Notes: generated by a model from the sequence alone, not told the origin. Positions 4,046 through 61,806 are shown, counted from the stretch's first letter. The stretch: DNA of 64,000 nucleotides from a virus (IMGVR_UViG_3300029288_000054:32001-96000); one strand, 5' to 3'. Numbers and translations: made by a program.

Positions 4046-4054
4046 CAAAAATAT
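4046..4054 (+). promoter_or_regulatory. CAAANWTA putative late promoter element
   Basis: CAAAAATAT ends 3 nt before the ATG at 4058. One of 14 oriented copies (see findings). Confidence 0.55.
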
Positions 4055-4057
4055 CTT

Positions 4058-6544
4058 ATGATCGATAAGCCCCGCAACGTTCAAAACGCTGCCGATGTAG
4101 ACAAAGATGAAACGGATGACATCAATGTTATGGGTCATCCGGAGCGAATCGTCAAACAACCCGGCAAGCCGGTCAAGAGGGTCCTTAACGAGCTTGATCC
4201 AGAGTGCCGCGATGATATTGAGGCACCAATTCGATTACAGGAGCTAGCAATGGCACAATCACGTCTATCCGAAGCTGTCCAAGACTACAAGGGAGTCAAA
4301 GGCGACTTCATGACCAGTATGGGTGGTAAGACCGATAAGCTCGGTGGAAAACAAAAGAATACCGGTGCCGGTATCGAGAAGTTTGGCGAAAGCACTTCTG
4401 GTGAAGCTGCCGATGGCATCACTACCAAGCTCAAAGATCTCAACCTAAAGACCAAGCAGAAGAATACGGGTGGGACATTCGAGACGCAGAACATTTCTGC
4501 CGGTAGTGCCGACGACGGCATCACGACTGCTATCAAGACGATGGGTGCTGAGCTTGGCCAGAACTCGATGCAGAAGAATAAGGGTGGTCAATTCGAGCCT
4601 CTGAAGGGCAGCCGGGACACGATGGGCAACAGCGTGGCCGAGGAATGGTCGCTTGATAATATCGCTACTATCATGGAAGGCGATAGCATCAACCTCCAGG
4701 ACCTATTTGACTCCTTCAGCAAGAATTCATCTTACGTCTGTCTGGAAGACTTCCAGCAGCTCTGCAATGCCCACGGCGTTCAAACCATTCTTTCTGAGCA
4801 GAACTTGAAAGCCCTTATGGCCGCTAGCCGCAAGTTCATGTTCTACGAAGGGAATGATGCCAGTGGTAGATTCTGGCAGCCACGTCCGCTATCCGAGATG
4901 GTCGGCACTGGTGCTGTCGCTGCTGCTCCAGTAGCCGAAGAAGACGAAGTGCCTCCAGAAGTGGTCGATGAACCAGTTCCCGAAGTCGCTGAAGTCCCCG
5001 AGATTCCGGGTGGAGAAGGCGAAATCGAAGCCGGTATGGAAGTCGAAGAGCAACCGGACGATCTGGCTGATGTGTTCCAGCAAATCGGCGTCGATTTCGA
5101 GAGAGCCGCCAACATGATGGCTGGGCACGACGAGTCAGCCGAGACACCGGAAGACGAGGCTGCCGAAGGCGACCGCCCTTTTGACGAGATCGAAGGCGGT
5201 GAAGAGGAAACGGCTGAATGCACCGAGGAGGTCTGTGAAGAGGCCCCTGGCGAGGAAGTCGGTGATTCGGCTGAATCCGGTGGTCTGATCAACAAGATTG
5301 CTTCTGGCGTCAAAGGCAAAGCGGCTTCTGTCGCTATGAAGGGTCGTGAAGAGGACGAGCAGAACGCTGTCGACCCATCGAAGGAAGTTGTGAAGATGAA
5401 GGTCGAATCTCGTAAGTGTGCCAAATGCGGCACGACCTTGGACGAAAGCGGCTGCGTCATGTGCGATTTCTTGCGTGAGAGCAGCGACATCGGCGAAATG
5501 AATGGCGAAGACGCCAAGGCCGATAAGAATGGCCATTATACGTCTGACAAGACGAAGAAGGGCCAAGGCGAACTCGGCAAAAAGGTTCCTCCACAAGAGA
5601 CATGCGAAAGCACGTCTGGTGCGGCATCTGACGGCATAACAAGCGAAATCCCCGGCAAGCAGACTCCGCTGAAGCCCAAGATGAAGAATACGGGCGGGCA
5701 AGCTGCTTTCAAGGGTGGCTCCGGGACGATGAAGGAGAATATTCTCCGTCTGTCGCACGTAGTCAAGGAAGCCATCACCCGTGGTGCTAGAAAGATCGGA
5801 AGGGCTGGCAAGTATACGGTTCGATTCGGTGTGACAGCCGAAGGATCAAAGGCCATTTTCCCGACGCTCACCGATGCACTGGCTGTTGTCGAAGAATTGC
5901 TGCAGGTGTGCGACAACAAGGCTGTTGTACTTGAAGCCCTGTACTCCATTCCTCATCAGAAGGAAGTTATCCACCGGCATCGCCTGCCGCTTACCAGAAT
6001 TAAGCGGCGTGATCCAATTGCCTGTGAAGGCAAGATTTTGTTCAAGACCGGCAAGGTTGCGAACGCCTTCGCAGACCGAGTTGTTTCAGAGGGTGTTGCC
6101 TGTCGCGTGAAGAACCATAATTGGGGTGCTGCTGTGGTTGGCACCTTCAGCTGGCCAATCGCGCAGCGAGCTTTCCAAACGATGTCTGAAGCCTGGGGAA
6201 CCCAAATTCACACGCCAGAGCGAGAAGCATTCCATCGTGGTTATGAGGACCAATGGGGTGACAACATCGGTGGTGAAGTTGAACCAGGGCTTGACGATGA
6301 GCCAGAATACAGTGCTGGTGCACCCGGCAACATCGATCCAGAAGGTAATATGTGCCCGAATTGTGGATCGGTTGAAGCGCCAGACGAGCACGGCATATGC
6401 TACGGCTGCGGCGAGCGAAGAGCTGCAGCAGAGCCAGAACTCGAACTCGGCGCACGACCAGACGAAAATCTCGCCGGATCGGACGATTACCTTGATTTCG
6501 ACCAAGGCTTTCAGCCACGGAGACCGATGCCGCGACGGGTGTGA
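4058..6544 (+). CDS. Acidic low-complexity putative internal head/scaffold-like protein with zinc ribbons
   Basis: Glu-rich, with repeated ESTSGxAxDGIT and KxKNTGG motifs. Many (I/L/V)xE-S/G/E sites (IMEG, LSEM, LRES) and two CxxC..CxxC modules. Confidence 0.6.
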   Translation: MIDKPRNVQNAADVDKDETDDINVMGHPERIVKQPGKPVKRVLNELDPECRDDIEAPIRLQELAMAQSRLSEAVQDYKGVKGDFMTSMGGKTDKLGGKQKNTGAGIEKFGESTSGEAADGITTKLKDLNLKTKQKNTGGTFETQNISAGSADDGITTAIKTMGAELGQNSMQKNKGGQFEPLKGSRDTMGNSVAEEWSLDNIATIMEGDSINLQDLFDSFSKNSSYVCLEDFQQLCNAHGVQTILSEQNLKALMAASRKFMFYEGNDASGRFWQPRPLSEMVGTGAVAAAPVAEEDEVPPEVVDEPVPEVAEVPEIPGGEGEIEAGMEVEEQPDDLADVFQQIGVDFERAANMMAGHDESAETPEDEAAEGDRPFDEIEGGEEETAECTEEVCEEAPGEEVGDSAESGGLINKIASGVKGKAASVAMKGREEDEQNAVDPSKEVVKMKVESRKCAKCGTTLDESGCVMCDFLRESSDIGEMNGEDAKADKNGHYTSDKTKKGQGELGKKVPPQETCESTSGAASDGITSEIPGKQTPLKPKMKNTGGQAAFKGGSGTMKENILRLSHVVKEAITRGARKIGRAGKYTVRFGVTAEGSKAIFPTLTDALAVVEELLQVCDNKAVVLEALYSIPHQKEVIHRHRLPLTRIKRRDPIACEGKILFKTGKVANAFADRVVSEGVACRVKNHNWGAAVVGTFSWPIAQRAFQTMSEAWGTQIHTPEREAFHRGYEDQWGDNIGGEVEPGLDDEPEYSAGAPGNIDPEGNMCPNCGSVEAPDEHGICYGCGERRAAAEPELELGARPDENLAGSDDYLDFDQGFQPRRPMPRRV

Positions 6545-6555
6545 TTTCGACCTCT

Positions 6556-6608
6556 CGACAAAGGCGACAGATAGCGGCTGACGCACCGCATGACTGTCGC
6601 CTTTGTCG
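6556..6608. other. Perfect 15-bp inverted repeat (long hairpin)
   Basis: CGACAAAGGCGACAG (6556-6570) pairs with CTGTCGCCTTTGTCG (6594-6608), with an inner GCGG/CCGC stem and no U-tract. Confidence 0.8.
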
Positions 6609-6625
6609 TATCTGGTAGATATATT

Positions 6626-6916
6626 ATGCGTACTATTAGGATTCCTATCATCGAAAGCAAGCAAAGCAATCAAGCTAAATTGTTTCGTAAGTTGCCACCA
6701 GTTGCGAAGGAATTATTCGTAGTTATAGCTAAGTTATCGCAATCGAAAGGAACCATAGCGATCGATGATATCAGAAATCTGAATATGTTCGGAGCCACAC
6801 GAGATATCGAGAATCTTCTGTACACCTTGGAATCGCGTGGCTTTGGCGAAGTTACGATAAATGGTGCTGAGACTCACTTCATACCTAATAAGATATTGGT
6901 ACAATCAGTTCTATGA
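6626..6916 (+). CDS. Small possible winged-helix protein
   Basis: Start reassigned to MRTIRIPIIESK because the tracked start lies inside the hairpin. IDDIRNL..DIENLLYTLESRGFGEV has a wHTH-like pattern. Confidence 0.55.
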   Translation: MRTIRIPIIESKQSNQAKLFRKLPPVAKELFVVIAKLSQSKGTIAIDDIRNLNMFGATRDIENLLYTLESRGFGEVTINGAETHFIPNKILVQSVL

Positions 6917-8112
6917 AATTATTAGCAGAGAAAAGTCTCAGAGATACTGGCAGTCGCCGTCTTGGTAAGCATAAATATCCCAGGTCGTCGTTCAAGTATC
7001 TATCATATAATACCGACCCCAAGCCTGACATTCTCGTCCTTGGAGATTGGAAACATCCGAGAACTAAGAATAATTTAGTTGCCGGAATAAACTTGAATTA
7101 TTTATCTAGCGGCCAGCTAGAAAAACTCCGTAAGGTAGCTGATAAAGTTTTCCGAAGAGATTCGTTACGTTCAAGATATAGATTCCTAAAGTCAGTGTTA
7201 CCAGATGTCGCGATGTACTATCGGACGTATGATTCCAAGTACATCAAGAGTATAGAACGTAGCGCACTCGATTCATATGTCAAGGCTAAGCCGACATCGA
7301 GGGACGAGAAAGCACAGACGACATCGGATACTGGAAGAGCAGCACATGTTAAAGAACCAGAAAAGGATATAGACCAACGCTCTGACGAGCTAGATCGTGA
7401 GACGTGGCAGACGAAGCGAAGGCTTTACGAGCCGGAAAAACAGAGACGCAGAACATCACCGGAACGCATCGGTATCGCTGGCAGCGAGCTAGCGAAGAAA
7501 GCCAAGGATGCAAGATATAAGCGTGATAGACGGAAACTTAAGGAATTAGAACGTCAGTTAGCTATAGATAGAGAACTACGCAGGCAGGCTGAATTATCCA
7601 GGAAACCAGAAGAGCCGGAGGAGCCAGAAGCACCGGAAGATAGACGTCGACGCAGAACTGGTGATTATGGCCCTGAATACCATCTAGATGATTTGGGATA
7701 TGAATCCTATATCAGAAGCCATAAGCCTGGCTCCAAGTTAATCACAGAGGCGAAGCATAAGAGTTTGTTCGCTGTTTTCGACGTGCTATCAGAGCAATTT
7801 GTTGTTGATTCTGTTATAAACCACGCAGAAATGCTCTTCGATGCCGGATGGGACTACGATCATACTGTATTATTCGAAGTAACTGATAATGAATTAATTG
7901 TCAGATCAGATTGTTCCGATACCGCCATGAAGCGTGCTATTGAGTGTTTCAAAAATAGCACTGTAAAAAATATATTGCTTGAATCTAGGTTTAAAGATCC
8001 AAGCTACGATCCAGAACATCCAGAAGAGTGCTGCCCGCACTGCGGAGCCAGACTAGAACGCGGTGATGATGGTATCTGTAATCGTTGTGGGAAGCCTTGG
8101 CCTGAAGAGTAA
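6913..8112 (+). CDS. T4 gp2-like DNA end protector domain fused to a charged region and a C-terminal zinc ribbon
   Basis: DPKPDILVL...GINLNYL...YRTY resembles gp2-family (D)xxPLV..GLNLHYL..KRY. C-terminal CPHCG-x8-ICNRCG. Confidence 0.5.
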   Translation: MKLLAEKSLRDTGSRRLGKHKYPRSSFKYLSYNTDPKPDILVLGDWKHPRTKNNLVAGINLNYLSSGQLEKLRKVADKVFRRDSLRSRYRFLKSVLPDVAMYYRTYDSKYIKSIERSALDSYVKAKPTSRDEKAQTTSDTGRAAHVKEPEKDIDQRSDELDRETWQTKRRLYEPEKQRRRTSPERIGIAGSELAKKAKDARYKRDRRKLKELERQLAIDRELRRQAELSRKPEEPEEPEAPEDRRRRRTGDYGPEYHLDDLGYESYIRSHKPGSKLITEAKHKSLFAVFDVLSEQFVVDSVINHAEMLFDAGWDYDHTVLFEVTDNELIVRSDCSDTAMKRAIECFKNSTVKNILLESRFKDPSYDPEHPEECCPHCGARLERGDDGICNRCGKPWPEE

Positions 8113-8156
8113 TTATCACCGCCCAAAGATATAAATGACTTTTTGGAGAAACAAGC

Positions 8157-10574: not shown

Positions 10575-10592
10575 ACGCCGTGGCCTTTGGAA

Positions 10593-10632
10593 GCCTTCTT
10601 TGAGGTCTTCTTTTTCGGACCTCCCAGAAGGC
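10593..10632. terminator. Stem-loop between convergent genes, possible bidirectional terminator
   Basis: GCCTTCT/AGAAGGC and GAGGTC/GACCTC stems. Confidence 0.5.
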
Positions 10633-10979: not shown

Positions 10980-11021
10980 TTACGTTCCTCGCCAAAGTTA
11001 ACTGCCTTGCTCACCCTGTAG

Positions 11022-11513: not shown

Positions 11514-11529
11514 TTGTATTTCAGCTTGT

Positions 11530-11895
11530 ATGGATGATATAAATGATTTTGATGTTTCTCAACTGCGATGGTGGCGATGTGTCGCTGCTGATACTGAGGA
11601 TAAAATACAGACCTTCACTGCAGAGATCGACCCGGATCGCGTCTACGCAGAATTCAATAAAATACGACGAGATTTGCAGCAGAAGGGCTGGTGTTTTATC
11701 GAAGCCAAGCCAATCCCAGAAGAAGAGCTTCTAGCAGCAGCAAAATTGTCGAGATTCAAGGCACGCAAACGTGAGCAACTGCGTGGCCTTACTGGGCGGC
11801 ATTACTCTCCGATTTCTCTTTGGCGAGTCGCACTATTTGCTGTGCTATTTGCTTTGCTAGTTCTATGGCTGGCGTATCACCATTTAAGTACTTGA
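11530..11895 (+). CDS. Membrane-anchored protein with a PilC/GspF N-terminal-like segment
   Basis: WRCVAADTEDKIQTFTAE...IRRDLQQKGWCFIEA followed by one C-terminal TM helix. Overlaps the 3' end of tmk on the opposite strand. Confidence 0.5.
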   Translation: MDDINDFDVSQLRWWRCVAADTEDKIQTFTAEIDPDRVYAEFNKIRRDLQQKGWCFIEAKPIPEEELLAAAKLSRFKARKREQLRGLTGRHYSPISLWRVALFAVLFALLVLWLAYHHLST

Positions 11896-14237: not shown

Positions 14238-14282
14238 ATATAATTTTGACCATTGGTTAAAATCGGATTAACAAATATACGT

Positions 14283-14633
14283 ATGGAACTGTGCCTTGTG
14301 ATACCCACAAATTCATTGGAGACGATGATGAATGGAACCATCGACCTTGTAGTAGTTATTCCCGACGTACTCAAGACATCTAATATAATTACTCGTGAAT
14401 TACAGGTGCTAGCAGATGGTGTACCGGTCGCAACGCTTGATGCTTCTGATAAGGGTCAAGTCGAAATTAATAATTTGCAGGTGTATGATAGCACAACTAT
14501 AACTATAGAAATGCGTGGTATCTATGATACTGGTGCGATGTCGGCACCATTGGTCCATGAATTCATTATTCTTGATGGAATTCCAGAGCCTCGATCAGAA
14601 TTATTTAACACCATAATCTTGAAGAGACCATAA
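14283..14633 (+). CDS. Hypothetical (Ig-like beta-sandwich possible)
   Basis: ATG at 14283 directly follows the CAAATATAC motif. Beta-rich. Confidence 0.55.
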
Positions 14634-16392: not shown

Positions 16393-16504
16393 TATCGATG
16401 TTTTGGCTAAGGTTAGACATTGTATGTAATTATAAGATACTGCCGATAGTTTCACCCATAGCGGCCAAATATAATGGGGTGGCTACCTGCCTATCAGATA
16501 GGAA

Positions 16505-18997
16505 ATGATTATGAATATTTTGGAGCGCATCGATTCCGCATTCAATAAAAAACTTATTAACGAAGCTGGCCCTATGAAAGAAAAGGGCCAGCCTGGTGAG
16601 GTCATTGATATGACTGACCAAACAGCTAGAATGTACGGGCTATCAAATTGCAGAGGTCCGAATATTGGCTGGGATGATTATGCTGCTGGAAGAGATTATC
16701 AACCTCCAATGCACTTCGAGGCTGGGTCGAACGTTGAGATAGGCCCGAAAGACACAGGAAAGGATGGGGTACTGGTCCCCGGTGATTATAATGAGGTAAA
16801 ATTCATCGGACCAAATCCGTACAGCGTCAACCATGGTGGTATTAGGCCGTGGTCGAAGGGCGAAATAATAGCCACTCTTATATATGACGGAGACGATGAA
16901 GAAGGAGAGGGTGGACCGAACGGTTTATTGCGTATGCTTGCCAAACAAAAAGGCAGAATAACAAAAGCCTCAGAGGCAATGGCTGGTAAGGAAGAGCGCG
17001 ACGAAAACGATGTCAGAGATTCTGTGATGCTCGGTGCCATGGCGGTTCTGCAGATGTTACCAAAAGACGAGAATCGACCAGGAACAAGATTTACCGCATT
17101 TGTCGGAAATTGGATTGAGCAGGCCATGTTTGCTGGAACTCCTCCTGGATACTCTGACGAATACAGACGAACCAGGGGACTGAGAAGCAGAGTTGAACCG
17201 GCTGTGAAGAACGCTATATTAGCCGCTCGACAGGGCAAACCGATGGATGAAGCGCTTCGTGATGTGCAGGATAAGTTCGACGAATTATATAGATGTCCAG
17301 CTTGTAAGGGGACCGGGACCATAACGGGCTTGAAGAAGGAACCAGTTCTCGACGCCAGCGGGAACGACACAGGTTTTAAAAAGGTTGTCAAGACAAAGAA
17401 TGGAAAAACTATTCCCGAAAACCAGCCATGCGAAAAATGTGGTGGCAAAGGGACTACTAAGCATATAGAAAAAGGCCCCAATCACCCATTTGGTAAGCTA
17501 TTGCCCAAATTAGAAGAGGTAAGAAATTACGTTATTCGTGCTATAACATCTGGGAGCCCAAAAGCTATCGAGGACGCTTATAAGAAAATGGAGACCAAAT
17601 TTGAAGAGATTAAAGAAGAAGGGGAAATATTTTCATCTGGAGGCATTACTACTACAGGCTCTGTTGGCAAGAAAGCCCGTGAACACGGGGCCTTGAATAC
17701 TTATAAGAGAGCATCGAAACTCTTGAATAAGCAGAGGGAGTTAGCCGAGAAAGCGATTAGAGAACTACAAGAAGGTAATGCCGAAGAGTTGGACAAGCTT
17801 GCAAACGAGGCCGGTAGACAGTGGAAAGCCTTCAAAACACCGAAACATAAAAAATGGATTCCAGACCCCAATATCGCTCCAGAAGATCAAAAAGAGCCAG
17901 TATACGTTTCGCCGTACGAAAAACCACAAAAAGCACTGCGTGGCGTTAGGGGTTCGATAGGGTTGGCAGCTATCACTACAGAGCTAATTAGGGCACTACA
18001 GAGCAAAAACGAAGAACAAATAAGAAAATTCATTACCATGAGCCAAGACGAAGAGCGACTGATTCGCGACAGAGAACAGGTGAAGTTACAATCATCAAAA
18101 GCCACTCAACTTGATGTTGGTGGTGGTGACGATGACGATGAGGAAGAGCGGTCTGATTTTGCCGATGTCGGCCAGGCGACTAGTGCAATCACTCAGAAAT
18201 ACCGCGAAATCATCACCATGGCCATGGCAAGACTATCGCCGTATCGTGACGATTCGCTCGAACGCAAGGAGCGTGCTTCGATAGCGAATAAGACGCTGGA
18301 CGGTATTAAATCTGCTATTGACGTCTACTTGAAAACGAAAGCAGGCGGGCAGGATACGTCCAATGCAGTCATGGCTATCGAGAATTTGCCGAAAAATCTG
18401 AATCCAAGCCTCGGCGACGAATGGAAAGAAGAAATCGCCGAAGTATTGCGCAACCTAAATGGTGCCATCGAAATGGGCGATGGCTTTAAAGAGATCAAAC
18501 GCGACATTGCCGATCTACAGAAGGTAGCGAAAGAAGATACAAGACTCGTTGCACCAGAGGGTTCTCTTACTCCACAAGAATACCGAATAGCGCTTCGATT
18601 GTACGGTATTAGTGATTACCCTGAAAAAGGCACACCACAGGACCCAGAAATCGACGAACAAGGAAGGAAGTCGAAGTGGGCTGAAGCTGGATATCCACTA
18701 GTCGGTCAAAAGCAGATAGGTAAAGAACAGAACGTATATCTATGGACCGACGTTTTTGAAACGACTGATGAAAATGGTGATCCGGTTCCGTCAGTGTCTA
18801 GTGCTCGGATCTCAAAAGTGAGAGGCAGCGCTGAATTCAAGATTGGCGATCTTGCCCGTCAATTGAAGCAGCAAATAGGAGAAGAATTCGGATATGATTC
18901 AGTCGACTACCAAATCATATCCGAATTTTACATATCCTATTGCCGCATGATAGTTGAAGAAGCTGTTCCTGGTAGCTTAAAGCTGATCTACGGCTAA
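16505..18997 (+). CDS. Giant sigma70-family RNA polymerase sigma factor with an inserted DnaJ-type zinc finger
   Basis: Region 2: NGLLRMLAKQ..DSVMLGAMAVL..RPGTRFTAFVGNWIEQAM. Region 3.2: QLDVGGGDDDDEEERSDFAD. Region 4: LTPQEYRIALRLYGI..VSSARISKVRGSAEFKI. Zn finger: CPACKGTG..CEKCGGKG. Confidence 0.72.
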   Translation: MIMNILERIDSAFNKKLINEAGPMKEKGQPGEVIDMTDQTARMYGLSNCRGPNIGWDDYAAGRDYQPPMHFEAGSNVEIGPKDTGKDGVLVPGDYNEVKFIGPNPYSVNHGGIRPWSKGEIIATLIYDGDDEEGEGGPNGLLRMLAKQKGRITKASEAMAGKEERDENDVRDSVMLGAMAVLQMLPKDENRPGTRFTAFVGNWIEQAMFAGTPPGYSDEYRRTRGLRSRVEPAVKNAILAARQGKPMDEALRDVQDKFDELYRCPACKGTGTITGLKKEPVLDASGNDTGFKKVVKTKNGKTIPENQPCEKCGGKGTTKHIEKGPNHPFGKLLPKLEEVRNYVIRAITSGSPKAIEDAYKKMETKFEEIKEEGEIFSSGGITTTGSVGKKAREHGALNTYKRASKLLNKQRELAEKAIRELQEGNAEELDKLANEAGRQWKAFKTPKHKKWIPDPNIAPEDQKEPVYVSPYEKPQKALRGVRGSIGLAAITTELIRALQSKNEEQIRKFITMSQDEERLIRDREQVKLQSSKATQLDVGGGDDDDEEERSDFADVGQATSAITQKYREIITMAMARLSPYRDDSLERKERASIANKTLDGIKSAIDVYLKTKAGGQDTSNAVMAIENLPKNLNPSLGDEWKEEIAEVLRNLNGAIEMGDGFKEIKRDIADLQKVAKEDTRLVAPEGSLTPQEYRIALRLYGISDYPEKGTPQDPEIDEQGRKSKWAEAGYPLVGQKQIGKEQNVYLWTDVFETTDENGDPVPSVSSARISKVRGSAEFKIGDLARQLKQQIGEEFGYDSVDYQIISEFYISYCRMIVEEAVPGSLKLIYG

Positions 18998-21094: not shown

Positions 21095-21162
21095 CACACG
21101 GATTTCATCGCCACAAGCGATATCGTATCCGCAACGATAACTTATCTACTGCATGAAATACA

Positions 21163-24832: not shown

Positions 24833-26431
24833 TTACACATAAATCGAGTATGTTATTTGAAGTTGGTCTGTTACTTCCAAGACTATACCAGTGCCAGTGA
24901 ATACGGCTGTAGCCCAGAGAATGTTGCTTGCTGATTTGTCTGCCTTTGTTTGTGCTGTAGGTCCGGCAGCCACAAATAGTCCGTTGATTGTACAATCAGC
25001 GGTGATAGTATAAAGAGACTTGACAACGTTCGTAATTGTTTGCGCCAATGCAGCATTTTTATTCCACATCGGCCTCGTATAAGTACTATTACTGGTGGTG
25101 TCAATATATGATGTGCACTCTAACCAATTATTACCTTGCAACGCCGTCAATTCGGCTTGCGGATACCATGTTAGCTCATTTGTGGCCGATGTGATATTGA
25201 TATATTCGAAATTAATCAAATCGGCCGTCTTAACGGCGGACGACACGCGTACCTCGTCCATCGACCCGGTGAAGAAAAGACTCGTCGTATAACCGCCAAT
25301 CGCATTACCAGTTCCGGTTGAATGCGTTATCGGATAGTTGCCAGCATAGTTAATTGTTGAATACCACTGACCATTGACGTATAACATCGCATCGCCGGTG
25401 GCACTATTATATGTCATTACCAGCCACGTCCAAGTTGATAGGCTGATCGGATATTGAAAATCAAATGCCCTCCAACCGGCGTTGAGATAAATATAACCTC
25501 CAATTTTGCTATCAGTATTGCGACCAACTTCTAGGACATAACCATTATCGAAACCGACTAAATTCGCGTCTGTATTGTAGGTCGGATTGACCCATGCTTC
25601 TACTGTAACATCTGCCACGGTCAGTGATGCGTTGTTTGGGATCGTGATACTTTTATTACTGTCGAAATATTCACCATATCCTAATACGCCAGTATTTCTT
25701 TCTGGTTGTCTGGTGGTGCTTGTGCTATTATTCGCGTTAATGGTGGAGTCATGATAGTCGCCAGCTACACCAGTCCCTATTTCATCGAGATGCCATGCCC
25801 CTTTATAATCTGTGCTCCAGGTACTAGCTGCCGCTTCTCCATCTGGTGCATTTGGATTACCGTAGTAAATGTAAAAGTCCGTTGGCTCTGTGTGGCTGAT
25901 GAGCGGGATCTGTACCCAAAAGACAGCAGTGACGGCTGAGCCATTCCCACCAGACCAATATTCACGTTCGTAATTCAACAAAGTAACGCCGTCAACTGCA
26001 CTGAATCTGATGTCGTACCCAGTAGCCAGCGCCGTTGTCATATCAACATCAGCGTTTATTTTGACACAGAGTGGAAAATTGACCAGATCATCAGCGCCGA
26101 CGTTTGTGTTGTCGATGGTGATTCGTTTGCGGTATTTCCAGTAATATCTCCAAACTGGTAGGCCAGAAAACGAGCTGGAATATAAATTCAACGCTTGGTA
26201 TGTGTCGATATCTGAGAGTGTGGAATAGCCGACACTATCGATCAGGCCAACAAACCATTTGGAATATTGTGCTCCATCATGAAAATTGGCATCGAGGATA
26301 CTGTCTTTACCAGCATTTAGAACGCCGTTTGGGATTCGGTAGGAATTAATTACCTTCCCGTGGCGTAAATGCTCGACGAAGAATTCACCTCTCGGCCTAA
26401 CGGAATTTTCAGCACTCGACTGTGTTTTCAT
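24833..26431 (-). CDS. Tail protein with an inserted DUF2341 + LamG (concanavalin A-like) cassette
   Basis: WKYRKRITID..LVNFP..DIRF..YIYYGN (DUF2341). TVEAWVNP..LYVNG..FTGSMDEVRVS (LamG). Flanks are homologous to 38499-39035. Confidence 0.8.
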   Translation of the reverse strand: MKTQSSAENSVRPRGEFFVEHLRHGKVINSYRIPNGVLNAGKDSILDANFHDGAQYSKWFVGLIDSVGYSTLSDIDTYQALNLYSSSFSGLPVWRYYWKYRKRITIDNTNVGADDLVNFPLCVKINADVDMTTALATGYDIRFSAVDGVTLLNYEREYWSGGNGSAVTAVFWVQIPLISHTEPTDFYIYYGNPNAPDGEAAASTWSTDYKGAWHLDEIGTGVAGDYHDSTINANNSTSTTRQPERNTGVLGYGEYFDSNKSITIPNNASLTVADVTVEAWVNPTYNTDANLVGFDNGYVLEVGRNTDSKIGGYIYLNAGWRAFDFQYPISLSTWTWLVMTYNSATGDAMLYVNGQWYSTINYAGNYPITHSTGTGNAIGGYTTSLFFTGSMDEVRVSSAVKTADLINFEYINITSATNELTWYPQAELTALQGNNWLECTSYIDTTSNSTYTRPMWNKNAALAQTITNVVKSLYTITADCTINGLFVAAGPTAQTKADKSASNILWATAVFTGTGIVLEVTDQLQITYSIYV

Positions 26432-26447
26432 AATATAAATTTGTCAT

Positions 26448-39035: not shown

Positions 39036-39122
39036 GGCAATTTCTTCTTTTAGTAGTAGTACGAAATGGTTTACGATAAATTTGAATTATCGTTAACCAT
39101 ACCTACTAAACGGCAAAGTACA

Positions 39123-40256
39123 TCAGTACTTGTTGAAATGCCGAGATAAGCAGAAATCGAGTGGAACGTCATCTGCTTCCGTGCCAATTTTTATAACCGT
39201 CGTTCCAGCGTTATTCGGCACAGCATAAATGATCCCATTTGGAGCAAGAGCACAACCGCTCCATTTTGCACCAGTTCCTAAGCTACCAAAGGTGACAACT
39301 GTATCAGTTGTCGGATCGATCATTAAAATAGTTGTTATAGAAGCACTATTCGTAGCGGCATAAATCATTCCATTTGGAGCTAGAGACCCGCCGAACCACT
39401 TGTATGTAGTGGTGCCGAGCGAGCCGAAGGTCGTCACCGTATCTGTAGTAGGATCGATTTTCAACACTGCTGCATTACTGGACGGTATTCCATAAATCAT
39501 TCCATTCGGAGCCAGCACAGCACCAGACCATTTATAAGTCCCCGTGACCACAGAACCAAACGTCGTTATTGTATCAGTTGTTGGGTCGATCTTTAATATA
39601 GTCGTTGCGGTATATGGAATAGCATAAATCATGCCATTTGGAGCTAGGCAACCACCATACCAATTATCGGCACTTGCTAAATCACCGAATATCGTATATG
39701 TATCGGTCGTAGGGTCGATCTTTAGCACACCAGCATAATAACGTGGTGGCGAATAAATCATTCCATTTGCAGCAAGAATACTGCTTACAAATTTAGAGCT
39801 GCCGCTAAAAGTTCCGAAGGTTGTGCATGTGTCCGTCGTTGGGTCGATCTTTAATATAGCATCCGATCCATATGGTGCAGCATAAATCATGCCGTTTGGC
39901 GCTAAGCAACCACCGGCCCATTTATATGTCGTTGCTCCTAGGTCGCCGAATGTGGTAATGGCATCTGTGGTTGTATCAATCTTAAGTACTACTGCACTTG
40001 TAGACGGTATTCCATAGATGCATGAGTTAGGTGCCAATACAGCACCTTGGAATCCGGTAGCGGTAGAAATCTGAGAGGTCGTTCTTTGAGAACAAGCATA
40101 ATTTAATCCGACCCGCGCACAAACGGCTTTCTGTACTTGCTGCCATGCTAGCTTATTCACCTCCCATGCAGGGAAGTCGCCATGATTCAGCATATCTCCG
40201 CTACTTAACGAGCTTATAGAGTTAGCTTTTTCGACTAGTGGTTTTTGATATGCCAT
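39123..40256 (-). CDS. Beta-propeller repeat protein, paralogue P1
   Basis: MAYQKPLVEK..; seven repeats; ends SRHFNKY. Closest to P4 at the N-terminus. Confidence 0.85.
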   Translation of the reverse strand: MAYQKPLVEKANSISSLSSGDMLNHGDFPAWEVNKLAWQQVQKAVCARVGLNYACSQRTTSQISTATGFQGAVLAPNSCIYGIPSTSAVVLKIDTTTDAITTFGDLGATTYKWAGGCLAPNGMIYAAPYGSDAILKIDPTTDTCTTFGTFSGSSKFVSSILAANGMIYSPPRYYAGVLKIDPTTDTYTIFGDLASADNWYGGCLAPNGMIYAIPYTATTILKIDPTTDTITTFGSVVTGTYKWSGAVLAPNGMIYGIPSSNAAVLKIDPTTDTVTTFGSLGTTTYKWFGGSLAPNGMIYAATNSASITTILMIDPTTDTVVTFGSLGTGAKWSGCALAPNGIIYAVPNNAGTTVIKIGTEADDVPLDFCLSRHFNKY

Positions 40257-40316
40257 AACAAAATAATTTTGACATATAACAAGCCTGTCGTCCGCTGCTC
40301 GGAAAGTGCATCCGGA

Positions 40317-42044: not shown

Positions 42045-42081
42045 ATGTTCTCTCCATGTTAAACAATATTATCTTTGATTC

Positions 42082-44155: not shown

Positions 44156-44216
44156 AGATTGTCAAAGATACTCAGGGAATTAAGTATAATGCCGTTCGAA
44201 TTCCAAGGAGCTGATC

Positions 44217-50310: not shown

Positions 50311-50388
50311 TTCTACAAAAATACTTTATACAGTCGCCCCGGCTGGTGAGGCCGTTTGAATGTATAATTATCGCAAGAGTGAGTCACT

Positions 50389-54197: not shown

Positions 54198-54412
54198 GAC
54201 TTTCTCTACTAGCTTACCTTCGCTCTCCGAAGCGATTGGAATGACGAGGTTTATCGGGAACTGAGGAATTACTGTTGCGATGATGTCACCTCGTTTGTGT
54301 TGTGCGATTACATTTTTAGATACGACTACTACAGGCTAGGAATAAAATACGCATCTACGTATTTTAAAAGGTTCACGTAGAATATAACCATCTCCCTAAT
54401 TGGAGTTCAAAC

Positions 54413-54814: not shown

Positions 54815-54816
54815 CG

Positions 54817-54990: not shown

Positions 54991-55466
54991 ACGCCTGGTT
55001 CGAACGTGCAGGCGAGAACGGCTTTGTCGATCATCGCGGTCAGAGCCGTCAGCATCGTCTCGATGTTGGTCGGCAATGTCGCCAATGGTGTCGTTGTGGA
55101 ATGGTTGACGATGGCACCGTTCTCGTAAGTCACCGAGATTGGCACTGTCGTGTTGTCGTCCAATGTGAATGTCAGATTCAGGTGAATCACGACATCGTTG
55201 ATGATTCTCGCGTCAGCGGGCGGCGTACTCATCCAGGAGAATCCTTCTGACAGCCCGACGCCTGCGATGAGGTTGGCTAACGGGTAGTACCATGCCAGAT
55301 TGTACATCTCGCCGGTAGCAATCTTGCTGCCGTCCTCATCAACGCTCCAGAGTAGATCGTTGACTAGATCGCGGGACTCAATCTGGCAATGGAAGTTGCC
55401 AACGTCGTTGTTGGAGTAAGCAATTACTCCAGAAAGAAAGCCAACTACACTATTAGCCGCTGCCAT
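54987..55466 (-). CDS. Hypothetical, probably virion protein
   Basis: Start reassigned to MAAANS (GGAGG ribosome-binding site). CAAATTTAT upstream. Confidence 0.7.
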   Translation of the reverse strand: MAAANSVVGFLSGVIAYSNNDVGNFHCQIESRDLVNDLLWSVDEDGSKIATGEMYNLAWYYPLANLIAGVGLSEGFSWMSTPPADARIINDVVIHLNLTFTLDDNTTVPISVTYENGAIVNHSTTTPLATLPTNIETMLTALTAMIDKAVLACTFEPGV

Positions 55467-55501
55467 ATGATGTTCCTCCAATACTATAAATTTGCCTGTG
55501 C

Positions 55502-58500
55502 CTAGGGGTTAATAATATTCAACTCGCCTGTTGACGAGTTGAATATCAACCACAACTGATCCAAGAAGGTTCCGTCTAGGATGGTTTTTGTGTGTGTCTC
55601 GCTCAACTCACCATTCTGGTAGATTCGGAACGTAAAATCGGCATTACTACCGGTAGTACCAAGCCAAGTGCCATAACCATGTATTCCCTTCGTGCTGCCG
55701 GTCAGTTCCGATATGAGTCCAGAGTTTATTGTTCCTGTCTCAGAAAAATTACCTGGTTGGTTGTTTGTGTTGAGGGGATCAAATCGAACCCATTGGTCGA
55801 ACTCGTCATAAACTGCAATGACTCCAGCGACAACAGGCTGTCCGGTATTATATGGGCTGTTGAAATCTGCTCTGACACCAGCACCAATACCAGGGTCGAG
55901 ATCTCCCCACTGTCCCTCTAGTTCGCATGTCCAAATTGGAGGCTCTGGTGATGGCGACGGTGACGGATAAATGGTAACTGTACCATCTGTCGTATTGATC
56001 ATCGCCCATGTGGTATCATTCGTGGAGTCGCGGGTCGTAGTATAGGTGCCGATGGAGATGCCATTTTTCTTGATATTCAGGTCAAGCTGTACCGACAATC
56101 TACCATAACCGCTCTCATCAACATAGACCGAGGGGCTGATGTAAAAGATGTTGGCGTTTGTATTAGCACTTAGGTTAGCCGTAATATTCCATGTCGTTGT
56201 GCCTTCATTCCAGATAATTGTTCCAGCCTCTGGTACTGACACGAATTGAATCCACGGCGGTTCCTCAAGCATTTGCATGTAATAAAACTGTCTCCCGCCC
56301 TGTTCATCTAATGAGAATGCTTCTATCCACTGCGCGTCTCCTTGATATGACCAAAATAGCGATGGATCATAAATGAAAGGATCAACGCTCCATTGCAACC
56401 CGAAATTAAGTGCCATATATCGGCTTGTTTCTGGATCAGGCTGCGTTCCAGATGGTGTTGCTGCAACCGTTAGCTCTGCAGTGTACTCATCAGTCACAGG
56501 AGATGGTTCTATGGAAGATGAAGGTTCAGGTGATGGCTCTGGAGAGGTGGAAGCTGAAGCTGAAGGTTCAGGCGATTCAGAAGGCGAAGGCGATAGGCTT
56601 AATGATGCAGACGGTGATAACGAGGTCGATGGCGACGGGCTAAGAGACAGCGACGGAGATAAACTCGGCGACGGAGATGGTGACGGCGATGTCGTCATGA
56701 GCGTGACTTCTGTCGTTTCACGAGCACCCATAACTTCACTATCAGCAGTCAGAATTATAGTTCGACCATAATCTGTTCCTGGGCCGACGTCGATATCTAG
56801 TGCGACTACCGATCCCCAAGCACCATTTATGAACATGTAAGGTGATTCAACAGAATCAATATAAGACTCCTGGCCAGCAAAGCGTAGCTGGCATAGGTAT
56901 CCATCGATCGTCGCTGACCATGTAATTCGTGCAGTGCTAGGCGGTGCAGGTGTCTGATAAGCAGAGGTGCTATGCAGAAAAGCCGATGCAACTAGAGTGC
57001 TGCCTGGATTTAATAGCTCTGGTGCTTCGACTGCTAGAGTGTAAATCGGGACCGGAGGCACCAGATAGTCTGGTGTATATCCGGGGCTGTCAATCGCCAC
57101 AGCAGTACCATACTGACATGACAATGAGCCGAGACAAAGCTCGAACATGTTTATTTGTCGTTGGAAGGTCTGACCATCGGGGTACTCATCCCAAACGAGC
57201 TGGCCGTCAAAAGCGAGATCAGAGACACCGATCTTCTCTTCGGCATACAGCATCGTATCTATTGTTATTTTATCAGGATTGAAGTCATAGCCGTATCTCG
57301 TTTCGCCATCTGAGAAGGTAAATGGCAAAGCATCGTCTTGATAGTCGTGTATCGGGCAGAGTAGAACATCGGTCCCGGCTGTTGGTGATGTACCGCCGTC
57401 GCATAGCAGAGCTGCACATCCACAATCTGTTCTATATCCATTTGTATAAAGTATGCCGCTGATAAAGAAGAATAACACATCTGTGCCTGTTGGCATAGAT
57501 CTATCGATTTCTAGTTCATTGAATAATTCTGTAAACGTACCATTTCTATCGAAATCATCCGGCACGTAAGGCTGGTAGCCGTGTGCAGCAGGATAACCAT
57601 CAATATAATCAATGTAATACGGTGACGTTCCTTGACATCTCGCTGCTGTTGAGAACAGCGGCGTTGTCATGGCGTTTATCACATTATCAGCCGTGCAAGA
57701 GCTGATGTTAACCACTACATCATCTGTGTCGCACTCGCTGAACACTAAATCAGCCGAGTCAAGAACCGTCTTATACACTTTGACGGTAACGTAACTCTCA
57801 GTAGCCTCTATAATCTTAGCAGATAAAGAATAAATGCTGTCAGGTAGGTTTTTAAGCTCGATACCGATTGTGATTGTTGGCAACCGGCTAAAAGTGTAGC
57901 CATATGACCATCTGACGCCACCGACAACGTAATCTTTCGCTATGGAGATTATTGATCTCGATGGCGGCAACATCGTCTCTAGCGTGATGGCTGGGTTGCC
58001 AGTCGATTGAGTAGAATAAATCGAATGTATAACATCGCTGTCGTCGAATCTCTTATTTGTGCCGAGGATATGTGAACCGAAGCTTGGAATATCTGGTTGC
58101 AATCCATTCGCGACAATAACAAACGGAGCGTAGTCGAATACCAGATATTGGTCGCCAGATGTTGCCGTCTCAAGCTTCGCGTGTAGATAAGTCGGCTGTC
58201 TACATGCTTGGTCATATGGTCCGCAATTTGTGCTGTATTGATCGTCCCAAGGCTTCGCTACCCATTTTGGATGTGTGAAGTCGGATTCGAGCTTGTTGAT
58301 TGTTGCGAATCTAGTGCCAGGAAAATGCATCAGCGGTACTTGGATACCAAGACTACGCCTCTGCAATGCGAGCATGTTCTTTTCACCACAAGCTCCATCC
58401 GTTAAATAGGGCCGGTTAGTAAAATGGACATTCTCGCCATCGACGGTATCGTATCCTCGCAACAGTCGTCCTAAGAAGTTATTGTTGGTCGAAGGCAGAT

Positions 58501-61500
58501 TCTCGTTGTATGATTGTTTTAATGCCGGACCCTGCACTGAATTCGTCAGTTCAGATGTGGCCTGGAATGAATAATAGACGCCATCCCCAAAGTTTATCTT
58601 ACAGATAGTAGCCTGGTATTGCTCCGTGCTAACCATCGTCATTCTGCGAAGTATTTCGTCTTCAACGCGACCTTTATAGCAGTAGTCAGATATACCATCA
58701 AGCTTACAGAATCGATTGGGAAATACCGAGAATTCTTTCGTGAATGGCCCATATTCAGAAGCATCGTTATTCGTCGAAGCATCAGCACCGGTCGGATAGA
58801 AGCTGCCATGAATGATATTGTCGATAGGAGACAAATCAGTTGTTGATTGACTTGCTATGCTTGGCGTATTCGATATCGGGGTTGGATCATATACAATGCT
58901 TTCGTTTTCGGTATTCTGACCCGGTACAAGTCTATCTTGACCGCGATAGGTGAATTTGCAGCAAGGATTATCAATGTCATCTACACACGGCTTAGATGGA
59001 TCACCCCATGCACAACTATCTGCCGGTGGTGTAGGCGGTAGCTTCTCATCACCAATCTGTGTGACGATTCTCTCAATGCAAGTCGGGTTGGGAGAATCGA
59101 TAGTTGCTGGCTTTTCCAGATAGCGATTAACGTCAACCCATGCTTGAAATTCTTCCGGAAGATTCGCCAGTATTCTCTTACGTAGCGCAATATCTTCTGG
59201 CTTATATCCGAGATCACTTGGATCAACTGAGCATTCGCCAGTTGGAATTTCTGGTAAAATGGCCGGTGGCACCTGTAACTTACCGGCATCGATATCCCAG
59301 CGTTGCTCTAGATCACCACCGACACAGAACGGAGTGACTTGATATGTCTCATCTAGATTGGAATGATAGATAAGAGTGTTCAATAATGAATGGAATGCTT
59401 TGATCTTGAACAGATAATCGATCAAGAACTCAAGTATATCACCACCAATCTGCTCGCCATTTTGTGTCAGCAATTGTATGTCAAAACGGTTGCTATATAA
59501 GTCTTTAATACTATCAGGAACAATCAACTCTTCGCGGCTATACGTAGCGAAGGCATATAATAGAAGCTCACTATCCGCAGCGTGTGGCCCTTTCTGACCG
59601 TACTTGTCGTCAAATTGAATCGAACCGTTAAATGTGAGATGTAGCAGGTTGGCATTTCTATCAATTCTGACACCGTTCGACACAAACGGTGGCTGGTCGC
59701 CGGTAGATCGATCGTCACCATTACCAACCGTAGCCGATCGATCAATCACAACCCTGGACCAGCTTACAACACCAGCAGTCTCGTCATTCAGCAGCGTCGT
59801 CGTTCTGCATACCTTCGGGATGCGCGTATATAACAAGCTTTGAGCGATGTTTTGGAACGGTACTGAAACCGTAATGAGAGAATCGCTAAGGACTGCCGTA
59901 ACTGTCCTTTCAGTTTCACCATTGACGATAACCGTGTCGCCAATCTCGAAGTCAGTTAAGAATAAGGTGCTGCTGTTGCCATACAGATTCGTGTTTTCGT
60001 TGGTAGAGACGGTACCTCGACCCGGTATTTTCCAGCTACCGGGATCATTATTACAATTCGCTGCGGCTGTCCCGATGCTGCACGAAATCTCTTCTAGGCG
60101 TTTGTATGCCCTACTGACATAAGCATAGGTCGTCCATTGGCTATCTGATCCAGTATTGCTTGTGTCGTTTTGGAACGGTATCGTAACAGTCAAATGATGG
60201 TTATCTAAAATAGTGGCTACGATTCTGGTAGTTTCGTTCGCCACCGATACCGTATCGCCTACTACGAAATCATTCGTGAATTGTGTGTCTGAATCGCCGA
60301 AAAGATCGATAGTCTGGTTTGTAGAGACTTGACCAGAGCCTATGATGTTCTTCTGCACCAGGTACGCATCTAATGTGATATCGCCTTCTTGAACCGTGTT
60401 GACGATACCTTGAACTTCATCAGTGAATGTTGGTCGATATAAGAGCGGAATGGTTAATTCACCGAAACCGCTTGTGTTATAGCCGACAAGCACAGGCTCA
60501 ATCTGGCAACTCTCTTCTATCTTAATCTCTTGGTTGGCGTAGGCTGATGGCAGCTTTTCCCCAGGACGTATTAGTCTCTTGCCGTCCTTAGACCAGTATA
60601 GCTTGTTGACATAGACGATATAACCGAACAACTCAAAGAGATCGTAGATGGCGTTCCGTGAGCCCTTTAACTGTTGCAATCTTACAACATTGCGTAGCAT
60701 CGTCTTACGCAGACGATAAAGGCTCTGTGGGAAGTATGGTAGATCAAGGCCAAGCAGGAAGCTAAGATATGGAACGAATTGCGGTGTTATCCAATCGACC
60801 CAGTTGACGCTACCAAGCAAATACTGTTCGTCGAAAATGTCTTGTAGAATGTCGGTGAAAGGGCGATAGAATTCGATTGTCGTATCTATGCTCTTCTGGT
60901 CGCTGGTCATGTAAGGAGCAGGAGTCAGATTAACCGTCTCCTGCATGACCTGACCGGGGTGATTCATTCTGAACCGCTTGACCGACGTGGCTTTTCTGGT
61001 CGGATCAATGCAATTTAGCTGCCCTGGTGTTGATCTGCTCTCGACTCTAGCATAGTACTGTGCTTGATAAGTGATATTATACCAATCTGGTGGCAGTTGT
61101 TCGGTATCGATCTTGATATCGCTGAGATCGTAGTAGTTAGCAGTCGGGTAATATCTGATCAGACCACAGCATCCTGACGCGGTAGTGTATTGCATCAAGT
61201 CGCCACCGACAGCCTCTGAATAATCAATCGGCTGTAGTGTCTCTAGAATAGCGGTTTCTATAGTACAATCGGCGTACAGATAAGGATTGGAGTCATTCTG
61301 ATATTGGTTGCCAGTAGCTACAATCCTGAAGAATTGTTGTGAATCTGGATGGATCATTCTGTCGATGAGTTCATTCATCGACACATTCTTCGCGAATAGC
61401 TCGTGATCGGGCGACATCAGCCCTATCGGTATCTGCCCAGCAACCAATGCCTTATGTGGTACGTCTTCTATGACGATTCTTACCGCAGCACCACTGCAGA

Positions 61501-61759
61501 ATTCGTTGCATGTGGTCGTTTTGACACCCATACAATCGCATTCTACTCCGCCACCACAATCGCAGTTCTGGACGATAATGCTAGAATTATCTATAGGCAA
61601 TCCCGCGATATCTCTGCGATCAGTCTCCATCAAAATCATCGGGAGTCCGAAGGGTCGATACGCGGTGCGATTATTGTTGACTGGCAGCAGAACCCATGTG
61701 GGAATGTGCGGGTTTGTTTGCATAGTACTCATTCTTCCTTCATCGTATCTACCAACCAC
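55502..61759 (-). CDS. Very large baseplate wedge-like protein (P2 gpI / T4 gp7-type motif) with a Ser/Pro stalk and C-terminal appendage domains
   Basis: VPYLSFLLG..LRKTMLRNVVRLQQLKGSRNAIYDLFELFG. Two GxGxVSTN..F..GD repeats. SPS tract at 56500-56700. True start may be 61732. Confidence 0.7.
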   Translation of the reverse strand: MVGRYDEGRMSTMQTNPHIPTWVLLPVNNNRTAYRPFGLPMILMETDRRDIAGLPIDNSSIIVQNCDCGGGVECDCMGVKTTTCNEFCSGAAVRIVIEDVPHKALVAGQIPIGLMSPDHELFAKNVSMNELIDRMIHPDSQQFFRIVATGNQYQNDSNPYLYADCTIETAILETLQPIDYSEAVGGDLMQYTTASGCCGLIRYYPTANYYDLSDIKIDTEQLPPDWYNITYQAQYYARVESRSTPGQLNCIDPTRKATSVKRFRMNHPGQVMQETVNLTPAPYMTSDQKSIDTTIEFYRPFTDILQDIFDEQYLLGSVNWVDWITPQFVPYLSFLLGLDLPYFPQSLYRLRKTMLRNVVRLQQLKGSRNAIYDLFELFGYIVYVNKLYWSKDGKRLIRPGEKLPSAYANQEIKIEESCQIEPVLVGYNTSGFGELTIPLLYRPTFTDEVQGIVNTVQEGDITLDAYLVQKNIIGSGQVSTNQTIDLFGDSDTQFTNDFVVGDTVSVANETTRIVATILDNHHLTVTIPFQNDTSNTGSDSQWTTYAYVSRAYKRLEEISCSIGTAAANCNNDPGSWKIPGRGTVSTNENTNLYGNSSTLFLTDFEIGDTVIVNGETERTVTAVLSDSLITVSVPFQNIAQSLLYTRIPKVCRTTTLLNDETAGVVSWSRVVIDRSATVGNGDDRSTGDQPPFVSNGVRIDRNANLLHLTFNGSIQFDDKYGQKGPHAADSELLLYAFATYSREELIVPDSIKDLYSNRFDIQLLTQNGEQIGGDILEFLIDYLFKIKAFHSLLNTLIYHSNLDETYQVTPFCVGGDLEQRWDIDAGKLQVPPAILPEIPTGECSVDPSDLGYKPEDIALRKRILANLPEEFQAWVDVNRYLEKPATIDSPNPTCIERIVTQIGDEKLPPTPPADSCAWGDPSKPCVDDIDNPCCKFTYRGQDRLVPGQNTENESIVYDPTPISNTPSIASQSTTDLSPIDNIIHGSFYPTGADASTNNDASEYGPFTKEFSVFPNRFCKLDGISDYCYKGRVEDEILRRMTMVSTEQYQATICKINFGDGVYYSFQATSELTNSVQGPALKQSYNENLPSTNNNFLGRLLRGYDTVDGENVHFTNRPYLTDGACGEKNMLALQRRSLGIQVPLMHFPGTRFATINKLESDFTHPKWVAKPWDDQYSTNCGPYDQACRQPTYLHAKLETATSGDQYLVFDYAPFVIVANGLQPDIPSFGSHILGTNKRFDDSDVIHSIYSTQSTGNPAITLETMLPPSRSIISIAKDYVVGGVRWSYGYTFSRLPTITIGIELKNLPDSIYSLSAKIIEATESYVTVKVYKTVLDSADLVFSECDTDDVVVNISSCTADNVINAMTTPLFSTAARCQGTSPYYIDYIDGYPAAHGYQPYVPDDFDRNGTFTELFNELEIDRSMPTGTDVLFFFISGILYTNGYRTDCGCAALLCDGGTSPTAGTDVLLCPIHDYQDDALPFTFSDGETRYGYDFNPDKITIDTMLYAEEKIGVSDLAFDGQLVWDEYPDGQTFQRQINMFELCLGSLSCQYGTAVAIDSPGYTPDYLVPPVPIYTLAVEAPELLNPGSTLVASAFLHSTSAYQTPAPPSTARITWSATIDGYLCQLRFAGQESYIDSVESPYMFINGAWGSVVALDIDVGPGTDYGRTIILTADSEVMGARETTEVTLMTTSPSPSPSPSLSPSLSLSPSPSTSLSPSASLSLSPSPSESPEPSASASTSPEPSPEPSSSIEPSPVTDEYTAELTVAATPSGTQPDPETSRYMALNFGLQWSVDPFIYDPSLFWSYQGDAQWIEAFSLDEQGGRQFYYMQMLEEPPWIQFVSVPEAGTIIWNEGTTTWNITANLSANTNANIFYISPSVYVDESGYGRLSVQLDLNIKKNGISIGTYTTTRDSTNDTTWAMINTTDGTVTIYPSPSPSPEPPIWTCELEGQWGDLDPGIGAGVRADFNSPYNTGQPVVAGVIAVYDEFDQWVRFDPLNTNNQPGNFSETGTINSGLISELTGSTKGIHGYGTWLGTTGSNADFTFRIYQNGELSETHTKTILDGTFLDQLWLIFNSSTGELNIINP

Positions 61760-61806
61760 TTATCTTTCATAGGCAAACATATAACGAACAAACGCATAGA
61801 GATCTC

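Follow-up and report, generated by a model that had tools for sequence, protein, structure and literature searches.

CAAANWTA, a conserved and oriented promoter-type box of new consensus in one clade of uncultured T4-superfamily jumbo phages

The late promoter of phage T4 is an 8-base-pair (bp) box placed about one helical turn before the start of transcription, followed by AT-rich sequence and lacking a -35 region; about fifty such sites, with the consensus TATAAATA, are read by gp55 together with gp33 and the gp45 clamp (PMC2988020). In this study, we have analyzed a box of similar layout, CAAANWTA, in a 64,000-nucleotide (nt) stretch of phage DNA (the window), which corresponds to bases 32001-96000 of IMGVR_UViG_3300029288_000054, a single IMG/VR virus contig of 388,105 bp rated 99% complete (G000). 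An initial annotation of the window had listed 14 copies of this box and proposed an analogous but different single-element promoter. We find that CAAANWTA is a genuine signal of promoter type, conserved and oriented, whose consensus is new and which belongs to a clade of uncultured T4-superfamily jumbo phages, and we consider it probable (about 0.72) that it serves as the core, -10-type element of a phage-specific promoter class that needs no -35 region and is used by host RNA polymerase with a phage factor.

Variants of the T4 box have been described in large T4-like phages. The jumbo phages CBB and GAP32 carry the late-promoter variant ATAAATA and keep a gp55-like gene (PMC5259590), and a cyanophage variant is quoted in PMC3184105. 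Like CAAANWTA, these are MEME-type motifs before structural genes, and they are read as gp55-type late promoters; they retain the ATAAATA core and a gp55-like gene, whereas here the core is CAAANWTA and gp55 is not detectable. In the jumbo phage AR9, late promoters of the form AACA-N6-TA/G are read by the phage non-virion RNA polymerase and give leaders of 26-491 nt (PMC5312081). This motif is likewise short, single and start-adjacent, and defines the late class of a jumbo phage, but AR9 uses its own multisubunit polymerase, for which no genes were found here, and some leaders appear to be absent from the phage under study. The Thermus phages phiYS40 and P23-45 have -10-only middle and late promoters with leaderless mRNAs, and promoters of phiEco32 are read by the phage sigma factor gp36. 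In these systems, the host core polymerase works from a single phage-specific box and messages are often leaderless; we take the parallel as a lead only. Their consensus sequences and lineages are different, and their factors are known.

Set beside the T4 late promoter, CAAANWTA has the same layout with another consensus, as the initial annotation had anticipated. Both are single 8-bp A/T-rich boxes, placed at -10 in our reading, with no -35 region and an A/T preference downstream; both are present tens of times per genome, with head and tail genes among those that they precede; and the capsid protein of the CAAANWTA phage is gp23-like. Six of the eight positions (2, 4, 5, 6, 7 and 8) are compatible with TATAAATA, two of them only through degeneracy, while positions 1 and 3 (C and A versus T and T) differ and are both constrained: changing C1 or A3 to T drops the counts to background, and the box does not conform to the TATAAATA/ATAAATA consensus. 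No gp55 or gp45 homolog was detected here, and some sites are fused to the start codon. The CAAANWTA class thus works like T4-type late promoters in every testable respect, and departs from them in two defining features, the consensus and gp55.

The phage genome has 47% G+C and a coding density of ~94%. A simple longest-open-reading-frame (ORF) scheme gave 513 genes and 24.5 kb of spacers, which we divided by strand into gene-leading (sense) and not gene-leading (antisense); this scheme places some starts too far upstream, and a few real sites are consequently misfiled as coding. Genes for the portal, large terminase, prohead protease, tail tube and collagen-like tail fibers are recognizable. 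The major capsid protein matches the PHROG major-head family (1e-78) and is a distant relative of gp23: two metagenomic huge phages have capsid proteins 36% and 29% identical to it, and for Rhodothermus phage RM378 and T4-like cyanophages the identity is ~27%. Most proteins of the window had no match in the searches made, and among 50,697 public phage records there was no match to the DNA or to the window proteins of 830 and 575 amino acids (aa). Two relatives, G001 (184.8 kb) and G002 (363.9 kb), are IMG/VR contigs from one common sample that were analyzed whole and share about 66-71% DNA identity with the phage over common genes. A literature search with the consensus words returned unrelated papers only.

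Placement, direction and conservation of CAAANWTA

Across the window, CAAANWTA occurs 27 times against 23.3±5.0 in shuffled sequence, a chance-level count that speaks for chance, or the composition of AT-rich spacers, as its source. The non-random feature is not the overall number but the placement and direction of the copies. Non-coding DNA makes up roughly 5% of the window and contains 14 of the 27 copies, and the gaps of the window hold 13 sense copies against 0.94±0.98 in shuffles of the same gaps. Genome-wide, the spacers hold 34 sense and 2 antisense copies, with dinucleotide shuffles giving 6.0±2.5 and a maximum of 14, so the strand- and position-specific enrichment that the initial annotation had named as a test is present over shuffled spacers. 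Because the word was picked from the window, the remaining 324 kb provide a fair test, and there 21 sense copies and 1 antisense copy are found where 5.0±2.3 are expected. In co-directional gaps, 16 copies run with the genes and 2 against them; divergent gaps contain 18 copies and convergent gaps (5.7 kb) none. One further window copy (10993-11000, plus strand) lies in a gap and is oriented away from the gene, and is probably due to chance. The excess over shuffles, its replication outside the window and the lack of enrichment in two other gp23-like huge phages, described below, make chance a highly improbable explanation of the class as a whole. We judge equally improbable that the word is the reverse strand of a -7 box of the Bacteroidota type. 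The reverse complement, TAWNTTTG, does match TAnnTTTG, the promoter form of Bacteroidota, yet read that way it fires 16 times against genes and twice with them in co-directional gaps, and it was rejected on direction; Shine-Dalgarno sites are also common in this genome (AGGAG, 53 versus 10 antisense), which is not known to be usual in Bacteroidota.

The box was also recovered blindly. An enumeration of all 8-mers with at most two free inner positions, against a second-order background, yielded three classes (A, B and C), of which class C, CAAANATA, is the CAAANWTA motif, with 27 copies versus 3.1 expected and 0 antisense. The motif is sharp: any single-base change at the seven constrained positions leaves sense and antisense copies about equal genome-wide, with possible exceptions at position 1, where the G variant (GAAAGATA type) and the T variant stand at 9:2 and 7:2 (sense:antisense). 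In the 25 nt upstream of the 34 sites, no position is conserved and no -35 region is found, which agrees with the initial description of a lone oriented element; a longer or bipartite motif was rejected on the same ground. The three bases past the box show a modest A/T preference (26, 22 and 24 of 34 sites, or 65-76%, versus 55.5% in spacers).

The 14 copies listed initially (8 on the plus strand, 6 on the minus) were all recovered at their positions, and a map of the window places each in an intergenic gap, reading toward the adjoining gene:

4046-4053, plus strand: CAAAAATA box, 4 nt before the ATG (4058) of an 828-aa gene; box and spacing kept in G001 and G002
8124-8131, plus strand: CAAAGATA box, 25 nt before an 805-aa gene (8157) with its own GGAG site; kept in G001 and G002
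14241-14248, minus strand: CAAAATTA box before a 321-aa helix-turn-helix (HTH) regulator gene, half of a back-to-back divergent pair; kept in G001, G002 and contig L062
14272-14279, plus strand: CAAATATA box before the gene starting at 14283 or 14327, the other half of the divergent pair; kept in G001 and L062
16466-16473, plus strand: CAAATATA box, 31 nt before the 830-aa sigma-like gene; box before homologs in nine contigs
26436-26443, minus strand: CAAATTTA box, 4 nt before the ATG (26431) of a 532-aa LamG/DUF2341 gene; kept in no relative
39077-39084, minus strand: CAAATTTA box, 41 nt before the 178-aa gene heading a nine-gene LamG-like array; kept in G001 and G002
40264-40271, minus strand: CAAAATTA box, 7 nt before a 377-aa DUF6923-repeat gene; not kept in G001 or G002, where gene order differs
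42070-42077, minus strand: CAAAGATA box, 25 nt before the 575-aa gene; kept in G001, G002 and L062 (reads CAAAAATA)
44163-44170, plus strand: CAAAGATA box, 46 nt before a 306-aa gene; kept in G001, G002 and L062
48125-48132, plus strand: CAAATATA box, 43 nt before a 71-aa gene; kept in G001 and G002 despite diverged flanks
50316-50323, plus strand: CAAAAATA box, 65 nt before a 1183-aa gene; kept in G001 and G002
55487-55494, minus strand: CAAATTTA box before a 164-aa gene, whose true start is probably an ATG ~20 nt further on, behind GGAGG; kept in G001 and G002
61774-61781, plus strand: CAAACATA box, 25 nt before an 82-aa gene; kept in G001 and G002

Almost all of the window sites are therefore kept in relatives, mostly with diverged flanks, and where letters of the box vary, the change falls on the free fifth base. 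One series precedes the gene of the 830-aa protein, whose homologs in nine contigs, down to 28% protein identity, have the box 30-50 nt upstream, reading CAAATATA, CAAAGATA, CAAAAATA or CAAACATA, with T, G, A or C at the fifth base. Among the box sites of the phage, orthologs in G002 defined by reciprocal best hits carry the box upstream for 14 of 21 sites versus 30 of 270 control genes, and in aligned orthologous upstream regions the constrained columns of the box are 75% identical to those of the phage, compared to 52% for other non-coding columns. In two distant gp23-like huge phages, by contrast, spacers of 3.3-3.4 kb each in the 41 kb around the capsid genes hold 0 sense copies, which argues that the enrichment is a property of this clade and not of phage spacers in general. 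The same 41 kb contain no gene-leading TATAAATA, and since neither word is seen, the late signals of these phages must be different again. The two, L068 (LR756511.1) and L069 (LR756508.1), are metagenomic huge phages of 595 and 484 kb with the nearest capsids in the public phage set.

Three further observations concern individual sites. The box at 39077-39084 sits within a small palindrome, ACGATAA...TTATCGT (39074-39096, minus strand), the arms of which have changed together in G002, in a compensating manner, to TTGTAA...TTACAA; the palindrome may serve as an operator, or form a hairpin, that overlaps the promoter. Upstream of the 16466 box, a conserved block, TATAAGATACTGCCGATAGTTTCAC (16425-16460), is present in all relatives and contains TATAAT on its opposite strand; it may be the promoter of the deaminase operon, in which case the called GTG start lies too far upstream. 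Next to the last box of the window stands a one-base variant:

61761-61768, minus strand: GAAAGATA one-base variant, back-to-back with the 61774 box and reading toward a 2085-aa gene; kept in G001 and G002

For the 2085-aa gene, the probable start is the ATG at 61723, which follows AAGGAAG, rather than the GTG at 61759; the variant box then lies 37 nt upstream of the start codon (61721-61768, minus strand).

Spacing to the start codon and predicted leaderless messages

We measured, in the phage, G001 and G002, how far the end of the box lies from the next ATG that begins an ORF of 60 codons or more. This distance peaks at 4 nt in the phage (5 cases) and at 4 and 5 nt in G001 (3 and 3) and G002 (7 and 1), for a total of 19, with every other distance within 0-15 nt represented by two or fewer cases. 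An 84-aa gene has a spacing of 4 nt in the phage and 5 nt in both relatives. Boxes elsewhere lie 15-108 nt before start codons that have ordinary GGAG-type sites. Two of the start-adjacent cases in the phage sit in short divergent gaps, where the message cannot be supplied by an upstream transcript and a ribosome site would not fit. For the 4-5 nt cases, it is simplest to assume that the A of the ATG is the first transcribed base, which would place the box at -12 to -5 or -13 to -6, the position of a -10 element; the geometry thus fits the core promoter that the initial annotation had suggested. Two such starts lie in the window:

4058-4060, plus strand: ATG of the 828-aa gene, the first start codon of its ORF and a predicted leaderless transcription start
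26429-26431, minus strand: ATG of the 532-aa gene, a predicted leaderless start with 4-nt spacing

At 4058, there is no room for a ribosome site between box and ATG, and the four spacer bases differ among the phage, G001 and G002 while their number stays the same. Leaderless messages had been proposed for four genes, and these two, with spacings of exactly 4 nt, hold up. The start at 40256 is borderline (7 nt, not conserved), and that at 14283 is contradicted by a conserved N-terminus and a GGAGA site ~45 nt further on in the phage, G001 and L062. For the divergently oriented message of the 321-aa gene (14237), a conserved GGAG after the box likewise makes a leaderless mRNA doubtful and a short leader likelier than none. 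In the literature on T4-type late promoters, we did not find leaderless mRNAs described.

The same spacing bears on the possibility that CAAANWTA is the binding site of a phage transcription regulator, an activator or repressor acting beside an unrecognized core promoter. The box is short, sharp and conserved, as expected for the site of a DNA-binding protein, one copy lies within the palindrome with compensating changes, and HTH regulators are encoded nearby. The box is, however, asymmetric and strictly oriented, with no fixed partner element, and in the 19 cases from three genomes its end stands 4-5 nt before the first possible start codon, so that there is no room for a separate -10 element before the mRNA start. 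We therefore regard a regulator site as unlikely.

A role at the RNA level, in 5' leaders, is quite unlikely in our estimation, whether for processing, for stability or as a signal for translation. An RNA element would obey the same strand rule and would likewise stand before genes, and in the 4-nt cases the box takes the place of the Shine-Dalgarno sequence. Yet box-to-start distances spread from 4 to 108 nt, most of the genes served have their own GGAG-type site nearer the ATG, none of the copies lies in a convergent gap, and where two copies stand back-to-back, with 45-47 nt between the divergent genes, an RNA could not be fed from a promoter upstream.

Ordinary host sigma70 promoters, with the -10 hexamer overlapping the 3' half of the box and CAAA as an accident of common descent, are in turn very unlikely. 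Several copies and their next two bases approach TATAAT or GATAAT (CAAATATAAT, for example, contains TATAAT), and one copy (55487-55494) has a 9-of-12 bipartite match. On the other side, the CAAA half is constrained as much as the TA half, there is no -35 or TG element at the box, and bipartite matches are not above shuffles, with otherwise no coincidence in the right direction. A hexamer at box positions 5-10 would leave only 2 nt before the ATG in the 4-nt cases, and the phage has a separate, clear extended -10 class.

We therefore return to CAAANWTA as the core element of a promoter class, for which the following sequence of events is proposed. A phage-made specificity factor would redirect host RNA polymerase and open the DNA at the box, and transcription would begin 5-6 nt past the last A of the box. 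Most transcripts would carry a leader of 10-100 nt with an ordinary Shine-Dalgarno site; at ~1/7 of the sites, the ATG would supply the first transcribed base and yield a leaderless mRNA. The class would be used by virion genes and by further genes that are probably late, and would be kept separate from the sigma70-like class TTAAT-N14-TCGTGCTATAAY, which dominates the small-gene region.

Genes behind the box and the factor that may read it

Beyond the window, CAAANWTA precedes three collagen-like tail-fiber genes, the tail-tube and prohead-protease genes, and a 226-aa gene directly upstream of the gp23-like capsid gene, whose operon includes the capsid. Box-led genes of the window encode LamG and DUF6923-repeat proteins and large uncharacterized proteins, and include the first gene of the nine-gene LamG-like array. 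The initial claim that the box leads mostly virion-type genes is accordingly borne out in part, by the tail, head and fiber genes outside the window, whereas most of the box-led window genes have no recognizable function and some are not virion genes. The accompanying observation that dut, tmk, the deaminase and a glycosyltransferase (GT10) gene have no box in front was confirmed, as were the identities of these genes. The label "late" is probably a reasonable one for the class.

Several points weigh against the promoter reading or against its late character. Some of the box-led genes are not virion genes: the HTH regulator and the 830-aa protein in the window, and an HNH endonuclease and a 215-aa Sigma70_r4 protein outside it, where a CAP-domain protein is box-led as well. 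No exact copy stands immediately before the portal, terminase and capsid genes, for which the nearest boxes are one-base variants or lie one gene upstream. First genes led by the box are not longer than those led by TGCTATAA (p = 0.43), and gene length was rejected as a proxy for class. The strand bias in the spacers of G002 is weaker, the box there being enriched and oriented less cleanly (28 versus 8). The relatives are kin, so that conservation counts are not independent events, and both start sites and timing are deduced from sequence. Finally, gp55 and gp45 were not recovered. No gp55 was found in any ORF of the three genomes by tblastn with T4 gp55, phrog_234, phrog_12791 or a hidden Markov model of 7 sequences (best E = 1.1), searches that a very divergent gp55 could escape, and PF02916, the Pfam family of the gp45 clamp N-terminus, gave no match in a search for which the control was positive in one genome only.

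As a separate observation, the portal and large-terminase genes (L037:13089-15008 and L037:10094-12046; genome 369089 and 366094) carry the variant AAAAGATA within 60 nt upstream.

Which enzyme and which factor would use the box can be narrowed to some extent. Searches with Pfam Rpb2_6 and Rpb1_2 found no multisubunit RNA polymerase, and a family search found no T7-like RNA polymerase, the latter a weak result given that its control had no match anywhere; with no phage RNA polymerase found, the host polymerase is the likely enzyme. The initial annotation had named an "830-aa sigma" as a factor to test, beside a gp55-like gene:

16505-18997, plus strand: gene of the 830-aa protein, with weak sigma70 region 2 and region 4 signatures; candidate specificity factor

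The protein family is restricted to this phage clade and bears a DnaJ-type zinc module. In a profile search against the PDB, its best match was FliA region 2 (E = 0.16); one of ten members matches Pfam Sigma70_r2 (E = 0.0021) and another Sigma70_r4 (E = 0.15, not significant); and hhalign against four E. coli sigmas gave a probability of 21%. A conserved stretch, LTPQEYRxALRLYGI, resembles region 4.1 of RpoD. The AlphaFold2 model is poor (predicted local distance difference test, pLDDT, 61.7; predicted template modeling score, pTM, 0.29), with a pLDDT below 55 in the region 2 stretch, and Foldseek returned nothing significant for it. The protein appears weakly sigma-like at best, which leaves the earlier label with some sigma signals and with nothing that ties the protein specifically to CAAANWTA; should it prove to be a sigma factor with a region 4, the two-box class A promoters would be no worse a fit for it than class C. 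A second protein, of 215 aa (L028:2256-2903; genome 178256-178903, plus strand), matches Pfam Sigma70_r4 with 39.8 bits, and its gene is preceded by CAAAGTTA, 4 nt and the ATG, in a divergent gap. It is an unlikely late factor, having no ortholog in G002 although G002 uses the box.

A more far-reaching proposal, which we offer tentatively and rate as rather doubtful, is that this clade of uncultured T4-superfamily jumbo phages has swapped gp55, gp33 and gp45 for another factor, which would read the new box CAAANWTA and produce part of the late messages in leaderless form. That factor may be the 830-aa sigma70-like protein, which has giant insertions and is restricted to the clade.

Other promoter-like classes and the meaning of the box

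The blind enumeration yielded two classes besides CAAANWTA. Class A, the stronger signal, consists of TTAAT, ~14 nt and then TCGTGCTATAAY, and is of the extended -10, sigma70-like type; its core, TGNTATAA, has 47 intergenic copies, concentrated at 140-200 kb (L026-L028) among small genes. It often occurs as divergent pairs, and a window copy is found at 11535-11542. Classes A and C have no first gene in common and occupy different regions of the genome. Class B, GTATTTNA, occurs 30 times in gene-leading spacers versus 2.2 expected, and 36 times in G002. It is often arranged in inverted pairs, such as TAAAATAC-N8-GTATTTTA, with window sites at 11516-11523, 21154-21161 and 54343-54366, and may represent middle promoters or operator sites.

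Most genes of this uncultured 388-kb phage lack a recognizable function, and the box provides a usable map of its transcription and a set of working principles that follow from it:

(i) Genes led by CAAANWTA can be grouped provisionally with the tail and head genes, and those led by TGCTATAA with the small, probably early genes.

(ii) A phage lineage with a T4-like capsid can, it appears, run a T4-style single-box program with a different word and no detectable gp55, which raises the question of which protein reads CAAANWTA.

(iii) The fixed spacing of 4-5 nt between box and ATG predicts that some of the late mRNAs of these phages would be leaderless.

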